64,000 nucleotides of DNA from a bacterium (GTDB taxonomy: Bacteria; J088; JAWLBW01), in the NCBI GenBank assembly GCA_041690355.1, contig JAWLHK010000002.1, positions 283,082 through 347,081 on the forward strand, given 5' to 3'. The notes beneath the pieces are model-generated. The model was not told the origin of the DNA. It did no database searches and worked only from the letters and a program-made list of their open reading frames with translations. Made by a program: the position numbers and the translations under genes. Shown here piece after piece: positions 108 through 33,357 of this stretch (positions within the stretch are counted from its first letter, which is position 1; each line of letters starts with the position of its first letter).

Positions 108-517
108 CGGGAGTCTGCGTCGAGGTAATTCTGGAGAATGATGGCGGCCGCGATGCGATCGACGGAACCCTTTTGGCGCCGGACCTTCCGGGGGGCGTCG
201 CGCAGCACCCGGGTGGCCTCGATAGACGAAAAGCGCTCGTCGACGGTTTCGACGGGCAGGCCGAGGGTCGCTCCGATCCGGCCGGCGAGGTCGAGGACGC
301 GCGTGGCCCGCGGTCCTTCGCTGCCGTCCTGATTCAGGGGCAGGCCGACGACCACGCGGCTGATTTCGTGCTCGCGAACCAGGGCGCCGATGCGCGCCAG
401 AAGGTCGCGATCGCCGGTGATTTCGAGCGTGCCCACGGGTTGGGCGGTAAGCCCCAGACTGTCGCTGACGGCAACGCCTACCCGGCGTTCGCCGAGGTCC
501 AGTCCGAGAATCCGCAT
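104..517 (-). CDS. ruvX: Holliday junction resolvase-like protein RuvX/YqgF
   Basis: Translation MRILGLDLGERRVGVAVSD... matches the YqgF/RuvX N-terminal signature; start taken at the internal Met (MRILG) rather than the longer ORF start at 544. Confidence 0.85.
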   Translation of the reverse strand: MRILGLDLGERRVGVAVSDSLGLTAQPVGTLEITGDRDLLARIGALVREHEISRVVVGLPLNQDGSEGPRATRVLDLAGRIGATLGLPVETVDERFSSIEATRVLRDAPRKVRRQKGSVDRIAAAIILQNYLDADSR

Positions 518-565
518 GGCGGTTATTATATCCGCGCCGACCAACGGGCGCGACCCCCCACATCA

Positions 566-745
566 AGTTACGAGTTACGAGTGACGAGTGAACGAGTGAC
601 GAACACCTTACCGTTCGCCTCGAGCTTACGGACGAAGGCAGAGCCGGAGTCGACAGCGAGAGGTTGCGCAAACTGACGATTGACGATTTGGCGGAACGCG
701 CCCGCTGGCCCCCGTCCCTTGCTTCCTTGGCGCTCGGCGCTTGTC
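566..745. repeat. mosaic intergenic element, reverse orientation (TCACTCG array 566-605, AATCGTC units 675-688, AGCGCCG module 725-745)
   Basis: Tandem 7-bp units cgagtta/cgagtga, gacgatt x2 and ccttggcgctcggcgcttg; the reverse complement of 601-688 aligns with 10563-10650 with few mismatches. Confidence 0.8.
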
Positions 746-887: not shown

Positions 888-2717
<1,830 letters not shown>

Positions 2718-2718
2718 A

Positions 2719-2830
2719 TTTACGATTGACGATTGACGATTGACAATTTTCGGAACGAACCCTGGCATGCTGCCCGTTCTTGCGGGAGCCGGTCAAATCG
2801 TCAATTGTAAATTGTAAATCGTCAATTTCC
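2719..2830. repeat. inverted pair of AATCGTC-type heptamer arrays (2719-2750 and 2794-2830) flanking a 43-bp core
   Basis: Arm 1 tttacgattgacgattgacgattgacaatttt, arm 2 caaatcgtcaattgtaaattgtaaatcgtcaatttcc; arms pair unit by unit with a few mismatches; begins 2 bp after the typA stop. Confidence 0.8.
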
Positions 2831-2862
2831 TCTGCCCGATAACTGCGGGCCAGGAGCACGAC

Positions 2863-4473
2863 ATGAAACTCTATCTGCCGGAACTGCGGCTGCGGATTGA
2901 AGAGTCCGCTGAGTTGCTGCGCGAGCGGGCCGCAGGGCAGCTGCAGATCGCACCCGACGCCATCCGGAAGCTCGACATCCGCCGGCGCTCGCTCGATACC
3001 CGGCAGCGCGACGTCATCTGGAGCGTCTACGGCCTCGAGCTCGAAGTCGACCCCGCGGCCGTGGCGCCCGACACGGGCCGGCGCTTTTCGCAGATCCCCA
3101 AGCGGGCGCTTCCGGCGCCGCTCCCCCCGCGGCCTTCGCGGCTTCCCGAACACCCGATCGTCATCGTGGGCGCCGGTCCCGCCGGGCTCTTCTGCGCCCA
3201 GCGGCTGGCCGACGTGGGGGTCCCCTGCGTGCTCGTGGAACGGGGGAAGCCGATCCGCCGGCGCGCCCAGGATACCAAGCGGTTCAAGAAGAGCGGCGAG
3301 CTGAACCCCGAGAGCAACATCCAGTTCGGCGAGGGCGGAGCCGGAACCTACAGCGACGGCAAGCTGACCTACCGCACCGACGACCCGCTGTCGGCCTGGG
3401 TGCTCGAGACCTTCATCCGCTACGGGGCCGACCCGGAGATCCGCTATCTGAACCGCCCCCACATCGGCACCGAACACCTTCGCGCCTGCATCGTGCGCAT
3501 GAGCGAGGGGCTGTCGGCACAGGGGGTCGCCTTTCGCTTCGATTCCCGGTTGGAACATCTGGTCATCGAAGAGCAGGGGAACCGGAAAGTACTGCGCGCC
3601 GCGCGGCTGACCGACGGCGAGATTCCCGCGGAAAAGCTGGTGCTCGGCATCGGCCACTCCGCACGGGATACGTTTCTCGCGCTGCAGGCCGACGGGGTCC
3701 CCTTCGTCGCCAAGCCGTTCGCCGTGGGGGTGCGCGCGGAACATCCGCAATTGCTCGTGGACCAGAGCCAGTACGGCCGGCATGCCGATAATCCTGCGCT
3801 GCCGCGGGCGAGCTACGCCCTGTCGCAGCAGGTGCGCACCGACGCAGAGCGGGGCGTCTATTCCTTCTGCATGTGTCCGGGCGGCGAGACGATGGCTTGC
3901 TCGAGCGAGTTCGGTGGCGTCGTCACGAACGGCATGAGCTACTCCGTGCAGCGCAGCGGCGTGGCCAGCTCGGGGCTCGTGGTCAGCGTGAATCCGCCGG
4001 ACTGCGGCGACCCGGCGGATGCGTTTGCCGGGATGCGCTTTCAGCGTTCCCTCGAAGAAGCGGCCTTCCGTCTCGGCGGCGGAACTTACTTCGCGCCGGC
4101 GCAGGGAATTTCCGATTTCCTGAGTGGCAAGGTTTCCGGTCGTCTTGGCGCGCAGGGAACCACGTACCATCCCGGGGTGACCGAAGCCGATCTGCGTACG
4201 ATCCTTCCGCCGTTCGTCACGGCCGCGCTCGAGCGGGCACTCCCCGCGTTCGAGCGGCGCATCCGCGGGTACACGGGCGAGAGCGGAATCATCGTGGGGG
4301 TCGAGACGCGCACGAGCAGCCCGGTGCGCATCCCCCGCGAAGAGGACCTGCAGGCCACCGGCTGGACCGGCCTGTATCCCGTGGGCGAAGGCGCCGGGTA
4401 TGCGGGCGGCATCGTGAGCGCGGCTGTCGACGGCGTGCGCGCGGCCGACGCGATCCTGAAAGCCCTGGCGTGA
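2863..4473 (+). CDS. FAD-dependent oxidoreductase (uncharacterized FAD-dependent dehydrogenase family)
   Basis: 536 aa; dinucleotide-binding motif IVIVGAGPAGLFCA and GIGHSARD segment typical of this family. Confidence 0.75.
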   Translation: MKLYLPELRLRIEESAELLRERAAGQLQIAPDAIRKLDIRRRSLDTRQRDVIWSVYGLELEVDPAAVAPDTGRRFSQIPKRALPAPLPPRPSRLPEHPIVIVGAGPAGLFCAQRLADVGVPCVLVERGKPIRRRAQDTKRFKKSGELNPESNIQFGEGGAGTYSDGKLTYRTDDPLSAWVLETFIRYGADPEIRYLNRPHIGTEHLRACIVRMSEGLSAQGVAFRFDSRLEHLVIEEQGNRKVLRAARLTDGEIPAEKLVLGIGHSARDTFLALQADGVPFVAKPFAVGVRAEHPQLLVDQSQYGRHADNPALPRASYALSQQVRTDAERGVYSFCMCPGGETMACSSEFGGVVTNGMSYSVQRSGVASSGLVVSVNPPDCGDPADAFAGMRFQRSLEEAAFRLGGGTYFAPAQGISDFLSGKVSGRLGAQGTTYHPGVTEADLRTILPPFVTAALERALPAFERRIRGYTGESGIIVGVETRTSSPVRIPREEDLQATGWTGLYPVGEGAGYAGGIVSAAVDGVRAADAILKALA

Positions 4474-4493
4474 GGCGGGCTGCACAGCCGCGC

Positions 4494-4710
4494 ATTCCTG
4501 ATTCCTGATTCCTGATTCTTGATTCTTGACTCCTTGAGCCGGAAGGTGAAGCGCCGAGCGCCGAGCGCTAAGCACCGAGGAAGGGCAAAGGTTTCATCGT
4601 CCTTGTCTGAAATCGTCAATTGTAAATCGTCAATCGTCAATTCCCGTGACTTGACGCGCGCCCGCCGACTCTATATTTTGACTCTTGACCCCTGACTCTC
4701 GACTCGCGAC
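4494..4710. repeat. mosaic intergenic element (ATTCCTG array 4494-4537, AGCGCCG module 4548-4580, AATCGTC array 4610-4645, GACTCTT-like array 4668-4710)
   Basis: Four distinct tandem heptamer arrays in a row between the FAD gene stop and the sterol-desaturase-family start. Confidence 0.8.
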
Positions 4711-4718
4711 GAAGAACC

Positions 4719-5933: not shown

Positions 5934-6404
5934 TTGTATACTGTATGCATGCAGAATCTCACGCGTTTTCTCTATTCTCCCGTCGAGTCGACATCCGTCT
6001 CGCTCGGGCTGCTCGCGCTTCGCGTGGGCACCGGGTTGTTCATGTTCTTCTTCCACGGTCTGGGCAAGGTACTGAATTATGCGGAACGGGCGCAGACGTT
6101 CAAGGACCCACTCGGCGTGGGGAGCGAGATCAGTCTGCTGCTCGCCATTTTCGCCGAGGTCGTCTGCGCGCTCGTGATCGTGCTTGGGCTGGGGACGCGG
6201 CTGGCGGCCATTCCGCTCGTGATCACGATGCTCGTGGCCGCGGGCATCGTGCACATTACCGACCCGTGGGCGAAGCAGGAGTTCGCGCTGCTCTACGCGA
6301 TCCCCTTCTTCGGGCTGCTGCTGACGGGCGCGGGGAAGTTTTCCCTGGATGCCCGTCTCTTCGGGCGCGCACCCGCTGCGCCGGTTCCGCCGACGGTGCA
6401 CTGA
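5934..6404 (+). CDS. DoxX family membrane protein
   Basis: Multi-TM protein with DoxX-like layout; true start may be the internal ATG at 5949 (MQNLTRF). Confidence 0.75.
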   Translation: MYTVCMQNLTRFLYSPVESTSVSLGLLALRVGTGLFMFFFHGLGKVLNYAERAQTFKDPLGVGSEISLLLAIFAEVVCALVIVLGLGTRLAAIPLVITMLVAAGIVHITDPWAKQEFALLYAIPFFGLLLTGAGKFSLDARLFGRAPAAPVPPTVH

Positions 6405-10431: not shown

Positions 10432-10494
10432 AGCGATGGATTCTACCATGGCGCGTCATTTCTGTAACGCGCTACTTGAGCGCCGGGCACCAGT

Positions 10495-10672
10495 CAAGCG
10501 CCGAGCGCCGAGCGCTGAGCGCCAAGGAAACAAGCACATGGGTATTTTCGGTACTTTCCGGTAAATCGTCAATCGTCAGTATGCGCAACCTCTCGCTGTC
10601 GACTCCGGCCCTGCCTTCGTCGGTCAGCTCGAGGCGAACGGGAATGTCACTCGTCACTCGTAACTCGTAACT
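10495..10672. repeat. mosaic intergenic element, forward orientation (AGCGCCG module 10495-10527, AATCGTC units 10563-10579, TCACTCG array 10647-10672)
   Basis: Same module order and internal unique sequence as the reverse-oriented element at 566-745. Confidence 0.8.
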
Positions 10673-10754
10673 TCGCGGAGCGCTCCCCCTTCCCCCCTTG
10701 GCAAGGGGACGCACTACAATAGGGAAGCGTGAACGCCGCCTCGAGGAGTTACCG

Positions 10755-15510: not shown

Positions 15511-15649
15511 GCCAAGCGCTGAGCACCGAGCGCCCATGAGGAACGAGAAACGTGATCAAGGTTCTTGCCTGGATTCGTCACTCGTCACTCGTAACTCGTA
15601 ACTCGGCACTTGCATAAATCGTCAATCGTCAATCGTAAATTGTAAATTC
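15511..15649. repeat. mosaic intergenic element (AGCGC module 15511-15535, caaggttcttgcc 15557-15569, TCACTCG array 15573-15606, AATCGTC array 15616-15649)
   Basis: Tandem heptamers as in the other elements; the AATCGTC array overlaps the last codons of the 15622..16008 gene. Confidence 0.8.
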
Positions 15650-16008
15650 TCCGGCTCCGCCGCCGCCGCCTCGATGGTTCCGCCCGGGGCCACCAGATAG
15701 AACCCGGCATCCCCGTCACCGTACTCCCCGGACGGATCCGACAGCAGCGGCGCCTGGATGCCGAACCGGTCGCACAGCGCGCGCGCTTCGGCTGGTTCGG
15801 CCGCCACGATCAGATAGACGTTCACGAAATCTTCGAGCAGCCAGTGGGCCACGCGCGCGGCCGCGGCTTCGAGCAGGCGCTCCTGTCTCGCACGGGGAAC
15901 AATGCCGACGACCGTGTGCCCGCGGGCGAAGATTTCGGCCAGATCGATGTTCCCCCCCTTGCTCGAAGCCAGACGGCGGGCGGGAAACGGCGTGCGGACG
16001 GCAATCAT
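15622..16008 (-). CDS. hypothetical protein with degenerate thioredoxin/peroxiredoxin-like segments (no CxxC)
   Basis: 128 aa from MIAVRTP; APLLSDPSGEYGDG and FYLVAPGGTIE resemble peroxiredoxin motifs but no catalytic Cys is present; C-terminal ENLQFTIDD is encoded by the heptamer array. Confidence 0.4.
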   Translation of the reverse strand: MIAVRTPFPARRLASSKGGNIDLAEIFARGHTVVGIVPRARQERLLEAAAARVAHWLLEDFVNVYLIVAAEPAEARALCDRFGIQAPLLSDPSGEYGDGDAGFYLVAPGGTIEAAAAEPENLQFTIDD

Positions 16009-16151
16009 TGGAGGGCGCTCGGGAAAGAGGTTCGTTCCGTTCCAGTATACGGAATTCCACCCGCGGTCGCCGCCGGAGGAGCGACGGTCGTGCATACTTT
16101 CGCTGCGGCGGGCGGGCGGCCGATTTGTCCGGGCATCCCCGCCGCGCTATC

Positions 16152-27280: not shown

Positions 27281-27625
27281 ATGCGGAAGATTTTCTGCGC
27301 GCTGGGGTGGTCTTTTCTTCTGGTGGCCTGCGGCACGTTCGACGGGGAACCTCCGGGGGCTTCGGGCCCGGTGTCCCTGACAGAAGTGGACGAGACCGTC
27401 ATCATCAGCCAGTCGGACGATCGATGGAGCCGGTTCGAGCTTCCCGAAGAAGACGGGGAGTGTTCGCAGGACGCCGATTGCGAAATGGGGGGCTGTTCGG
27501 CCGAAGTCTGCACGACGGTCACGACGGCCCCGGAGCTGTTCACGACCTGTAACGAACAGCACCCCGGCAATGGTTTCCGTTGCGGCTGCATCCGGTCGCA
27601 TTGCCGCTGGCAGAAATACGAATGA
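27281..27625 (+). CDS. cysteine-rich lipoprotein (hypothetical)
   Basis: 114 aa; lipobox FLLVAC; eight further Cys in the mature part; gggaggaag RBS. Confidence 0.55.
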   Translation: MRKIFCALGWSFLLVACGTFDGEPPGASGPVSLTEVDETVIISQSDDRWSRFELPEEDGECSQDADCEMGGCSAEVCTTVTTAPELFTTCNEQHPGNGFRCGCIRSHCRWQKYE

Positions 27626-27726
27626 GCGTTCGGGCCGGGCCCGAACGCTCATTCCTGATTCCTGATTCTTGATTCCTGACCGGAACGCCCAGCGACTGCC
27701 GGCTGAAGACTGCCGCCTGAAGACTG
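27620..27726. repeat. mosaic intergenic element (palindromic hairpin 27620-27654, ATTCCTG array 27651-27681, CAGTCTT-family units 27694-27726)
   Basis: Perfect palindrome tgagcgttcgggc/gcccgaacgctca overlapping the stop codon, then attcctg x4, then a duplicated ctgccgNctgaagactg. Confidence 0.75.
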
Positions 27727-31350: not shown

Positions 31351-33078
31351 ATGTCCCGTTTTTCCCTTCGGTTCCTCGCCGCGGCCGCTCTCTTAAGCGG
31401 ATGCGCTTCACAGACCTCTGTCGCCCGCCTCCGGGCCCTCCCGCCCCGCGAGAGCATCGCGGAGCACTGCCGCGAGCAGATCGGCGCGCCCCGTATCGAA
31501 CGCGTCGGCGAGCGCATCTACGCGGCGCTTGGCTACGATCTGGCCAACACGATCCTCATCCGCACCGACGACGGCAACGTCATCGTCGATCCCGGCATGA
31601 GCCCGGCCCGGGCCGCGCGCGTCCGCGAAGATCTGCTGGCCGCGGCGCCGGGACCCGTGCGCGCCGTCGTCTACACGCACAGCCATATCGATCACATCGG
31701 CGGTGCCAGCGTGTGGGTCGAGGAGGGGACCGAGATCTGGGCGACCGACGCCTTTCTGCCGCACATGCTGAAGCAGTACGGCCGGTTTCAGCGCGCCGAG
31801 GCCATGCGCGGGCAGGGGCAGTTCGGCCGTCACGTTCCCCTCGAAGCGCTCCCGTGCTCGGCCATCGGGCGGCGGGTCGACATCGACGCCGCTCTCGAGT
31901 CGGGGGTACGCGTGCCGACCCGCACCTTCTCGGGGCAGGCGTCGTTCACGATCGGCGGCGTTCGCTTCGAGCTTCGCGAGGCGCACGGCGAGACGCACGA
32001 TCAGCTCTTCGTCTGGCTTCCGGGCGAGCGGATCCTGCTGCCCGGCGACAACTTCTATCACGCTTTTCCGAACCTCTACACGATTCGCGGCACCAGCGCA
32101 CGGCCCGTCGACGTGTGGATCGAAAGCCTCGACGCCATGCGCCGCCTCGCGCCCATGGCCCTGGTACCCTCGCACACGCGGCCGGTGGTCGGCGGTGACT
32201 TGGTGGCCGGGGCGCTTCGCGATTACCGTGACGGCATCCAGTGGCTGCGCGACGACGTCGTGCGCCGGGCCAACGCGGGGATGACCGTCGAGGAGATCGT
32301 TTCTTCGGTCGGCCTTCCCCCGCATCTTGCGCAACGCCCCTTTCTCCAGGAACTCTACGGGCAGGTCGACTGGTCGGCGCGCGCCATCTACGACAACGAA
32401 CTCGGCTGGTTCGACGGCGACCCGCTGGCGCTTTATCCGCTCGCGGCCACGGAGACGGCGCGGCGCACGGTGCAGCTCATGGGCGGGAGCGAGAAGGTGC
32501 TCGCCGCTGCCCGCGAAGCGCGCGCGCAGGGAGATCCGCGTTGGGCGGCTCACCTGCTCGGCCTGCTGCGCGACGCCCGCGCAGGCGATCCCGAGATCGT
32601 CCGCGAAGAGCTCGCGCGGAGCCTCGAGGCCGTGGCCGCCGGCGTGGGCAATACGAACGGGCGCGCCTATCTGTTGGAATCGTCGGTCGCGCTCACGGAA
32701 ACCAGGAGACCGCTCCCGCGTGTGCAGCTCGATGATGCGCTGCTGGAGGGAATTCCCGTCAAGGTATTCATGACGCTCATGAGCGGCCGCCTGATCCCCG
32801 AACGGTCGGCGGCCGTCCACGAATCGGTCGTGTTCCGCTTCGGCGAGCAGCAGTTCGTGCTTACCATCCGTCGCGGCGTGGCTGAGCTGGTGGAAGGGGA
32901 ACCCCTCCCCGGCACCCCCGAGCCGCTGGCGGTCGTGCATACCGATCCGTTGACGTGGAAGCGGCTGGCGCTGCAGATCGACAGCCCGGCCGCGGCCCTG
33001 CTGTCGGGGCGGCTGCGCATCGAGGGGAGCCAGACGGGCTTTCTGGCCTTCACGAACCGCTTCGACCGCGAACTCTGA
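31351..33078 (+). CDS. metallo-beta-lactamase-fold alkyl/aryl sulfatase-like lipoprotein
   Basis: Lipobox LLSGC; MBL motif THSHIDHIGG; C-terminal SCP2-like region; aggag RBS before ATG 31351. Confidence 0.8.
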   Translation: MSRFSLRFLAAAALLSGCASQTSVARLRALPPRESIAEHCREQIGAPRIERVGERIYAALGYDLANTILIRTDDGNVIVDPGMSPARAARVREDLLAAAPGPVRAVVYTHSHIDHIGGASVWVEEGTEIWATDAFLPHMLKQYGRFQRAEAMRGQGQFGRHVPLEALPCSAIGRRVDIDAALESGVRVPTRTFSGQASFTIGGVRFELREAHGETHDQLFVWLPGERILLPGDNFYHAFPNLYTIRGTSARPVDVWIESLDAMRRLAPMALVPSHTRPVVGGDLVAGALRDYRDGIQWLRDDVVRRANAGMTVEEIVSSVGLPPHLAQRPFLQELYGQVDWSARAIYDNELGWFDGDPLALYPLAATETARRTVQLMGGSEKVLAAAREARAQGDPRWAAHLLGLLRDARAGDPEIVREELARSLEAVAAGVGNTNGRAYLLESSVALTETRRPLPRVQLDDALLEGIPVKVFMTLMSGRLIPERSAAVHESVVFRFGEQQFVLTIRRGVAELVEGEPLPGTPEPLAVVHTDPLTWKRLALQIDSPAAALLSGRLRIEGSQTGFLAFTNRFDREL

Positions 33079-33081
33079 AAA

Positions 33082-33332
33082 CAGTCTTCAGGCGTCAGTC
33101 TCCGGTCCTCAGTCGGAATTCGTCACTCGACACTCGATACCCGTCACTGAGTATTCGTCACTCGTCACTCGTCACTCACACAAAGCGCCAAGCGCTGAGC
33201 ACCGAGTGCTGACGAGGCAAGGGCGAAGTGTTTCAAGGTTCTTGCCGGAAACGCGTCACTCGTCACTCGTAACTGAACAAGGTTCTTGCCGCTCAATCGT
33301 CAATCGTCAATCGTAAATCGTCAATCGACGAG
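33082..33332. repeat. largest mosaic intergenic element (CAGTCTT-family 33082-33114, TCACTCG array 33117-33180, AGCGC module 33184-33217, caaggttcttgcc 33234-33246 and 33278-33290, TCACTCG 33251-33275, AATCGTC array 33293-33332)
   Basis: All module types in one spacer, beginning 4 bp after the sulfatase stop and ending next to a TATAAT box upstream of rseP. Confidence 0.8.
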
Positions 33333-33357
33333 TGGGGCGTAGTATAATGAGCGAATC

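Follow-up and report, generated by a model that had tools for sequence, protein, structure and literature searches.

The 64,000-nucleotide stretch considered here (64 kb of contig JAWLHK010000002.1, hereafter the window, with positions numbered from its first letter) carries near its left end the gene typA (open reading frame (ORF) 888..2717, + strand), whose product belongs to TypA/BipA with the Pfam domains GTP_EFTU and BipA_C and ends in ...AEAVA*, a C-terminus kept in relatives. The next ORF encodes a flavin adenine dinucleotide (FAD)-dependent protein (PF21688), referred to as the FAD gene, and starts with an ATG at 2863. The spacer between the two genes is largely taken up by a pair of opposed heptanucleotide arrays, the typA doublet. 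As an earlier sequence-only reading of the locus had proposed, the element sets in 2 nt past the TGA stop codon of typA (2715..2717, +) and its right arm ends about 30 bp, in fact 32 nt, before the FAD gene ATG.

The left arm (2717..2749, +) is a heptad array in the GACGATT or R orientation and reads TTTACGA TTGACGA TTGACGA TTGACAA TTT; taken from 2719, the same array is TTACGAT TGACGAT TGACGAT TGACAAT (2719-2746) plus TTT. The right arm (2795..2830, +) has the AATCGTC or F orientation and reads AAATCGTC AATTGTA AATTGTA AATCGTC AATTT. Both arms are reported as period-7 arrays by Tandem Repeats Finder with 4.4 and 4.7 copies, respectively. An inverted-repeat search matched 2717-2749 with 2795-2827, that is, two arms of 33 nt each that are 82% complementary and 45 nt apart, and the proposal that opposed heptamer arms can pair is thereby confirmed. 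Several alternative arm registers, offset by 7 nt or one heptad, are 88-94% complementary; because it is built of repeats, the stem would pair in several such shifted registers. The unit sequence itself also accounts for the stop content of the two strands, as each of the three frames of the GACGATT strand contains TGA, and the AATCGTC strand is free of stops and would encode IVNRQSS repeats.

The middle segment (2750..2794, +) was examined by folding, by alignment and by blastn against the window. The sequence-only reading had placed a 43-bp core between the arms; a middle is present (45 nt), but it is not neutral cargo, as its ends, CGGAACGAAC and GTTCTTGCG, prolong the palindrome around the centre GGCA-TGC-TGCC. 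Since the segment continues the palindrome and forms its GC-rich hairpin tip, the entire 112 nt is one imperfect palindrome. The segment occurs once in the window and resembles the sequence beside another array of the family at 674-688.

The long imperfect stem-loop that had been suggested for the locus is real, with strong statistical support from folding. The + strand RNA of 2710-2840 is predicted to fold at -43.9 kcal/mol with a z-score of -4.16, none of 200 shuffled sequences being as good, and the fold of the doublet as DNA has a z-score of -4.45. The - strand RNA folds more weakly (z-score -1.57), since the C-to-T variants of the right arm permit G-U pairing on the + strand only. A search of 2600-2950 with the Rfam covariance models (E<=10) gave no match, the only match at the gathering threshold in the whole window being a tRNA, and at gathering and permissive thresholds alike no Rfam family was assigned to the repeat elements. 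It is well supported that the feature is a doublet, namely two inverted arrays of four to five AATCGTC-family heptads that belong to an intergenic repeat family.

The sequence-only reading overlooked what matters most, namely that the arms belong to a family of tandem heptanucleotide arrays that is both genome-wide and metagenome-wide. When GACGATTGACGATT was searched with up to 2 mismatches, 20 matches were found in 64 kb against 0.53 expected, and a stringent autocorrelation filter returned 11 period-7 arrays in the window and none of periods 5, 6 or 8-11. Every array of the window is intergenic, lying between genes supported by Pfam or by GC content at third codon positions (GC3). The typA doublet has the hallmarks of a heptanucleotide simple-sequence repeat (SSR): at least three head-to-tail 7-nt units, an enriched period of 7, a non-coding location and a unit that recurs at many loci.

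Apart from this one doublet, AATCGTC/GACGATT arrays stand at six other intergenic sites of the window, five of them singlets. Two units of AATCGTC (674..688, -) lie in the ruvX-typA spacer within a composite repeat of about 215 nt (566-785), and two more (10563..10578, +) lie within the second copy of that repeat (10460-10677). The array AAATCGTC AATTGTA AATCGTC AATCGTC AATT (4610..4642, +) is found upstream of a fatty-acid hydroxylase gene. An array of AATCGTC x2, AATCGTA and AATTGTA (15613..15648, +) comes right after an ACTCGTC array (15572-15610), and an array of 5 units (33291..33329, +) precedes a TATAAT box by 14 nt and an rseP-like gene by about 30 nt. These arrays are chained with other heptad classes, namely ACTCGTC, AGCGCCG, ATTCCTG and GACTCTN, and with the 14-mer GACTGCCGCCTGAA. 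The array copies align as a loose module composed of (AGCGCCG)n, a short variable hairpin, an optional (ACTCGTC)n and (AATCGTC)n, and both halves of the typA element can be aligned with the 3' portion of the (AGCGCCG)n-(ACTCGTC)n-(AATCGTC)n module. The second half of the window is without arrays and holds tight operons such as rimP-nusA-infB-truB-rpsO-pnp.

Outside the window, the exact 20-mer AATCGTCAATCGTCAATCGT was found in at least 120 metagenome contigs and in 41 viral contigs, with about 1 match expected by chance. The counts that follow for metagenome loci refer to the matches listed. The contigs range in GC content from 0.32 to 0.69. Period-7 arrays number 227 in the metagenome loci, which total 666 kb, compared with 1-20 arrays for other periods; AATCGTC is the unit in 123 cases, followed by AATCGTG (13), AATCGTT (10) and about 60 other heptads. 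Neighbouring arrays that are 10-120 nt apart are arranged as RF (GACGATT...AATCGTC) in 26 cases, as FR in 10 and as direct repeats in 5. With 36 of 41 neighbours inverted (88%) and RF being the order of the typA doublet, the inverted doublet is a preferred and recurrent architecture. The spacers of the other doublets are unrelated in sequence and 15-117 nt long, a range that includes the 45 nt at typA, and approximately 63% of the arrays are singlets. Of 128 array sites, 50 are no more than 450 nt away from the end of a contig, as is expected of multicopy repeats. None of the 184 loci compared contains AAGGTTCTTGCC or the AGCGCCG array, two motifs specific to the window.

A comparison with relatives places the doublet in an evolutionary context. 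Only six relatives have a TypA protein above 70% identity, and a search of genome contigs with TypA returned relatives at 59% identity or less only. Contigs with a TypA that is 77-82% identical keep the gene order ruvX, typA, FAD gene. Their typA-FAD spacers measure 19 bp (L016), 57 bp (L017), 115 bp (L020) and 156 bp (L018), and none of the four contains heptads; nor does any period-7 array occur in about 84 kb of the relatives' DNA. The sequence-only reading had suggested comparing the orthologous spacer: the relatives do lack repeats, the heptads having been gained in the lineage of the window. The last 30 nt or so before the FAD gene start, comprising a small hairpin and a ribosome-binding site, are common to the relatives, which fixes the ancestral right boundary of the spacer. 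In the window these are a stem-loop, GCCCG-ATAACTG-CGGGC, followed by an AGGAG ribosome-binding site (2834..2856, +), identified by spacer comparison and lying outside the repeat. In L017 and L020 the stem-loop is kept as GCTCG...CGAGC with one compensatory pair change. The ruvX-typA spacer tells a similar story, being 370 nt long in the window and 182-220 nt in relatives, with an excess of about 150-190 nt that corresponds to the composite heptad element. Since the syntenic relatives have no heptads and shorter spacers, the heptad arrays represent a lineage-specific gain inside conserved spacers. For the doublet itself, a gain between the typA stop and the conserved hairpin and ribosome-binding site of the FAD gene is well supported by this comparison. 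Of the two closest relatives, L020 has in its spacer a GC-rich palindrome of 70 nt and L018 has two GC hairpins, one of which is a classical terminator; hairpins of unrelated sequence have thus repeatedly taken up the position after typA.

A stable hairpin directly past a stop codon (-43.9 kcal/mol), with a classical terminator at the equivalent place in L018, the closest relative, raises the question of whether the doublet is a Rho-independent terminator of typA. Among the matches listed, FR heptad doublets with outer GC clamps, A- and T-runs and structured spacers (AAAAGCCGTG...CACGGCTTTT) do look like bidirectional terminators; RF doublets, the typA type, have spacers that are not themselves structured and show no such look. 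The stem base at typA, however, is AU-rich, the stem is followed by the tail AAUUUCCUCU instead of a U-run, and a scan of 2400-3200 found neither a canonical terminator nor, in the typA-FAD spacer, a credible promoter. A clear terminator elsewhere in the window (12235-12208) has a GC stem plus TTTTT. Ancestrally, 19-57 bp separated the FAD gene from typA; the FAD gene lacks an evident promoter of its own, and efficient termination would silence it. The terminator reading, one of those offered from sequence alone, is accordingly unsupported in its canonical form, and a function of this kind is highly improbable.

The doublet may instead act, if it acts at all, as an intercistronic hairpin of the kind formed by repetitive extragenic palindromes (REPs), bacterial interspersed mosaic elements (BIMEs) or REP doublets forming hairpins (REPINs); this functional reading, drawn by analogy, is given about an even chance. 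REP, BIME and REPIN sequences are extragenic and multicopy, form inverted doublets with poorly conserved spacers, are often found right after stop codons and stabilise the upstream mRNA (PMC3116915, PMC3337134). REP doublets fold into hairpins in single-stranded DNA or in mRNA (PMC3116915), and mRNAs that contain REPs present exonucleases with a structured substrate (PMC12320835). Like these, the typA doublet forms a long hairpin just past a stop codon. Unlike AATCGTC, which occurs as tandem heptads, the REP unit is a single imperfect palindrome with a conserved GTAG-type head.

In mechanistic terms, typA and the FAD gene would have been ancestrally co-transcribed and, given their ancestral adjacency and no credible promoter or terminator between them in the window, the element is probably transcribed. 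The transcript is predicted to fold into an AU-rich stem of about 33 bp with a GC-rich tip, beginning at the stop codon. Such a hairpin could be a barrier to 3' exonucleases, a long duplex for cleavage of the RNase III type, or a partial attenuator of read-through, any of which would uncouple typA expression from that of the downstream FAD gene. The arrays themselves probably arise through replication slippage of 7-nt units, and the inverted doublet may have formed through inverted duplication or template switching.

Several observations weigh against a hairpin function. Transcription through the element and an effect on the typA or FAD mRNA are both inferred. For 13 metagenome doublets between co-directional genes, among the matches listed, the better-folding strand is sense in 5, antisense in 5 and equal in 3, so there is no G-U signature of RNA-level selection, and the strand asymmetry in the window (z-scores of -4.2 and -1.6) may be incidental. 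Most family arrays, at 5 of the 6 other window sites and about 63% of those in the metagenome matches listed, are singlets that are unable to form hairpins; hairpin formation therefore cannot be the general function of the family. A single composite element folds no better than its shuffles, and the spacers of RF doublets among the matches listed are unstructured on their own. Slippage was not directly seen either: only two near-identical contig pairs (97-98% identity) are available, and their arrays are identical with no change in copy number.

Some of the same evidence fits a role at the DNA level, in which the heptads are cooperative binding sites for a putative nucleoid-associated or global regulator, or for a ribbon-helix-helix dimer like omega. 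On this view each 7 bp would accommodate one dimer, and the inverted pair would be a bipartite site through which the DNA upstream of the FAD gene is organised or repressed; the capacity to form a hairpin would be a side effect. The arrays have 4-5 units and are strictly intergenic, and some precede promoter-like boxes, 33291-33329 lying before TATAAT and 4610-4642 before TTGACG-17-TATATT. Metagenome doublets show no asymmetry in strand folding, as given above, and in units outside the search seed AATC is kept more than position 7. In the window, 6 of 7 AATCGTC arrays are oriented toward the start of the neighbouring gene. This count falls short of significance (one-sided p ~0.06), and a bias for the + strand confounds it. 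In metagenome loci, whose genes were called with a GC3 heuristic that proved correct in about 9 of 10 checks against the window, the arrays had no preference for pointing at gene starts (25 vs 31, matches listed), and such an orientation was dropped as a general rule. Hexamers resembling -10 boxes are not enriched beside arrays at 122 sites among the matches listed. No candidate binding protein was identified, and no omega-like ribbon-helix-helix protein was found in the window.

The heptads bound by omega have the consensus WATCACW. Omega/ParB of plasmid pSM19035 needs at least four contiguous heptads, direct or inverted (PMC9499535). The AATCGTC arrays resemble these operators in having 4-5 contiguous 7-bp units, in some cases upstream of promoter-like boxes, and in the shared AATC; the resemblance in sequence ends there, and the omega heptads are contiguous without a spacer, plasmid-borne and accompanied by a cognate ribbon-helix-helix gene. 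A second precedent is found in Geobacter metallireducens, where 'putative global regulator binding sites' of classes 1-3, described along with four-heptad elements, have three to five tandem heptads, mostly in opposite-strand pairs at variable distance, that are intergenic, species-specific and absent from its relative; binding by integration host factor (IHF) or HU was only proposed (PMC2700814). The typA doublet likewise consists of opposite-strand heptad arrays, and the 36 inverted pairs elsewhere among the matches listed share the variable distance. The class 3 consensus, MTYCTGA, is identical at 6 of 7 positions to the TTCCTGA arrays of the window (ATTCCTG, 4491-4534 and 27647-27679). AATCGTC, in contrast, matches neither MTYCTGA nor TCTCCGTS, and nothing links the two organisms. 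A third precedent is in Nostoc, where heptamer arrays lie beside start codons and deletion of heptamer repeats alters promoter output (bioRxiv 10.1101/2022.06.06.494920). TAACTGA arrays of Beggiatoaceae, cyanobacteria and Bacteroidetes have two to six tandem heptads in intergenic DNA, often a few nt upstream of start codons, and a patchy phylogenetic distribution that suggests horizontal spread (PMC4679880). Several metagenome AATCGTC arrays similarly abut start codons; TAACTGA arrays, however, are nearly always direct (1 inverted in 170) and oriented toward the start codon (PMC4679880), whereas AATCGTC arrays have no overall orientation bias and a strong preference for inverted neighbours. 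That the palindrome at typA reaches past the heptads into the middle segment, and that FR doublets carry GC clamps and A/T tracts, indicates real nucleic-acid pairing. With these points taken together, protein binding is a possible but rather doubtful explanation.

The preference for inverted pairs also bears on mobility. The sequence-only reading had offered the arms as terminal inverted repeats of a miniature mobile element, and a broader version would have the doublet as non-autonomous mobile DNA, akin to REPINs or miniature inverted-repeat transposable elements (MITEs), whose replicative unit is recognised in single-stranded DNA by a trans-acting enzyme of the HUH type, a REP-associated tyrosine transposase (RAYT) or another enzyme; singlet arrays would be its decayed remnants. 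Lineage-specific insertion in conserved spacers would be explained, as would the inversion of 88% of adjacent arrays (matches listed), which may be compared to 93% for REP doublets (PMC3116915). The composite element of about 215 nt is present in two dispersed copies with a core that is about 95% identical, the presence of the heptad in viral contigs and in contigs of GC 0.32-0.69 (matches listed) suggests horizontal spread, and the 50 of 128 array sites less than 450 nt from a contig end (matches listed) are as found for multicopy repeats. For a MITE, the typA doublet does have terminal inverted repeats, yet these arms are generic arrays that also occur alone, and copies that share internal sequence were not found, the core being unique in the window and the spacers of other doublets being unrelated and of variable length. 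The only flanking duplication is AATT(T), a self-complementary part of the repeat unit, and the composite repeat borders have neither terminal inverted repeats nor target duplications. With REPINs, the doublet shares the inverted arrangement, the less conserved spacer and the hairpin. Unlike REPINs, which have fixed spacing per genome, more doublets than singlets and a linked RAYT gene, the heptad family has variable spacing and more singlets than doublets, its units are tandem repeats and not individually palindromic REPs, and no transposase, RAYT (Y1_Tnp) or integrase is among the approximately 48 ORFs of the window, which spans 64 kb of a contig of at least 376 kb. It is well supported that the typA doublet is neither a transposase-type MITE nor a canonical intrinsic terminator, and mobility of the broader kind is quite unlikely.

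Heptad arrays could also be a neutral by-product of slippage biased to 7-nt units, with the inverted pair a chance or template-switch product without function. According to Mrazek 2007, as cited in PMC4679880 and PMC4692102, heptamers are the commonest long SSRs in many bacteria and slippage is their proposed origin. Known heptad repeats include GGGAATC of Xanthomonas and GGGGAYT of Nostoc (PMC4692102) and the cyanobacterial STRR sequences, and in Xanthomonas some of the copies are paired in inverted orientation and could form a stem-loop or cruciform (PMC4692102). The family described here resembles these intergenic heptanucleotide SSRs, or long SSRs, in its tandem 7-nt units of few to about ten copies, its intergenic and multi-locus occurrence and its over-representation of period 7. 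Unlike the Xanthomonas and Nostoc heptads, AATCGTC is not G-rich and has no quadruplex potential, and several heptad classes are chained here into mosaics; no relevant mention of the AATCGTC unit was found in the searchable literature. The co-occurrence of many different heptads and the lack of any heptad arrays in close relatives would suit a neutral origin. Pure slippage, however, would amplify arbitrary heptads, and here one heptad recurs at many loci in many unrelated contigs, the array size is narrow (4-5 units) and inverted neighbours exceed direct ones by 36 to 5 among the matches listed. An origin without function is very unlikely on these grounds.

A bolder proposal, which is unlikely as well, is that AATCGTC arrays are the cis sites of an undescribed, horizontally spread system, based on either a protein dedicated to reading heptads or an HUH/RAYT-like enzyme by which inverted doublets are copied. 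In that case many uncultured bacteria and some phages would share a new class of mobile or regulatory DNA built from repeats, with the typA doublet as a functional or replicative unit of it.

To our knowledge, neither a function nor a generating mechanism has been established for heptanucleotide arrays, and the AATCGTC doublet adds to this known, functionally unexplained kind of bacterial repeat. New in this case are the recurrence of one unit, AATCGTC, over contigs of very different GC content, the strong preference for inverted doublets (36 inverted vs 5 direct neighbours, matches listed) and a clean comparative setting in which array-free syntenic relatives reveal gain inside conserved spacers. 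Should the doublets turn out to be processed, bound or mobilised, they would open a way to study a widespread type of non-coding DNA in bacteria. Heptad arrays should not be annotated as terminators or MITEs by default; they also break metagenome assemblies.

Other identities were considered for the element and rejected. Arrays as clusters of sigma-70 -35/-10 boxes (TTGACG / TACAAT, R strand) were set aside since no window array has both boxes at 16-18 nt, and a sigma-54-like CTGGCAT...TTGC in the core has a GG-to-GC spacing of 18 nt, not 12. For an integron attC site (RYYYAAC ... GTTRRRY), the element ends read ATTTACG and GTCAATT, and typA is a housekeeping gene in conserved synteny. Pairs of DNA uptake sequences and CRISPR were ruled out on sequence and period.

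The heptad arrays of the window are confined to its first 34 kb, a part with slightly positive GC skew; past about 38 kb, where the skew is negative, there are none. Sixteen of 19 window arrays share one strand orientation, and a replication-strand bias is inseparable from gene orientation in so little sequence. The two dispersed copies of the composite element (566-785, +; 10460-10677, -) have the order ACTCGTN array, non-repeat core of about 70 nt, GACGATT x2, variable hairpin and GGCGCTC array. Both are in divergent promoter regions, ruvX/typA in one case and a GH92 gene and an FHA gene in the other. In one frame of the core, three of the changes that distinguish the copies fall at third codon positions and are synonymous; this frame corresponds to a 29-codon ORF whose ATG, at about 10581 in copy B, comes directly after the AATCGTC array.

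The 245-nt spacer at 4474-4718 consists of nearly nothing other than four heptad arrays (ATTCCTG x6, AGCGCCG x4, AATCGTC x4 and GACTCTN x4) and also holds the promoter-like TTGACG-17-TATATT. In relatives L016 and L017 a TetR-family gene separates the FAD gene from the fatty-acid hydroxylase gene; no TetR gene occupies this place in the window. About 500 nt (15650-16150) with no Pfam-supported gene separate the heptad arrays from the likely start of CoaBC, and an ORF at 15625-16146 (-) has no match. In the stretch 27620-27726, a 16-bp GC hairpin (27620-27654) runs straight into an ATTCCTG array, which is followed by 2.4 copies of the 14-nt repeat GACTGCCGSCTGAA; the reverse complement of this repeat recurs at 33078-33115, right after the stop of a sulfatase-like gene. 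The sequence GCCGCCTGAA is one base off the Neisseria DNA uptake sequence, probably by coincidence.

Among the metagenome loci, the AATCGTC arrays of L076, L178, L166 and L157 abut coding starts and leave no room for a ribosome-binding site. In one example, AATCGTCAATG..., the final heptad unit shares bases with the start codon, ATG, of an RmlA-like gene, and other arrays continue into the leaders of genes for type IV pilin-like proteins. IMG/VR contigs among L024-L060 (e.g. L025, L026, L033 and L042; GC 0.38-0.49) have dense, irregularly spaced ATCGTCAA repeats that adjoin a long A/T-rich tract, a layout like that of iterons beside the unwinding element of a replication origin. These viral repeats are probably unrelated to the bacterial arrays beyond the shared motif.

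Three minor observations concern gene leaders and contig ends. The stem-loop and AGGAG at 2834-2856 may be a conserved 5' leader structure of the FAD gene. The contigs of relatives L019 (ending at 6015) and L021 (ending at 3104) stop exactly 14 nt after the typA stop; the last bases of L019 are the onset of the GC palindrome that is complete in L020, and its break suggests that the palindrome is a multicopy, assembly-breaking repeat in that organism too. Lastly, ruvX seems to be leaderless, with TATAAT/TACAAT exactly 7 nt upstream of the ATG in the window (515-531, -) and in L017, L019 and L021, and the rseP-like gene, with TATAAT at 33343-33348 and ATG at about 33358, resembles this arrangement.

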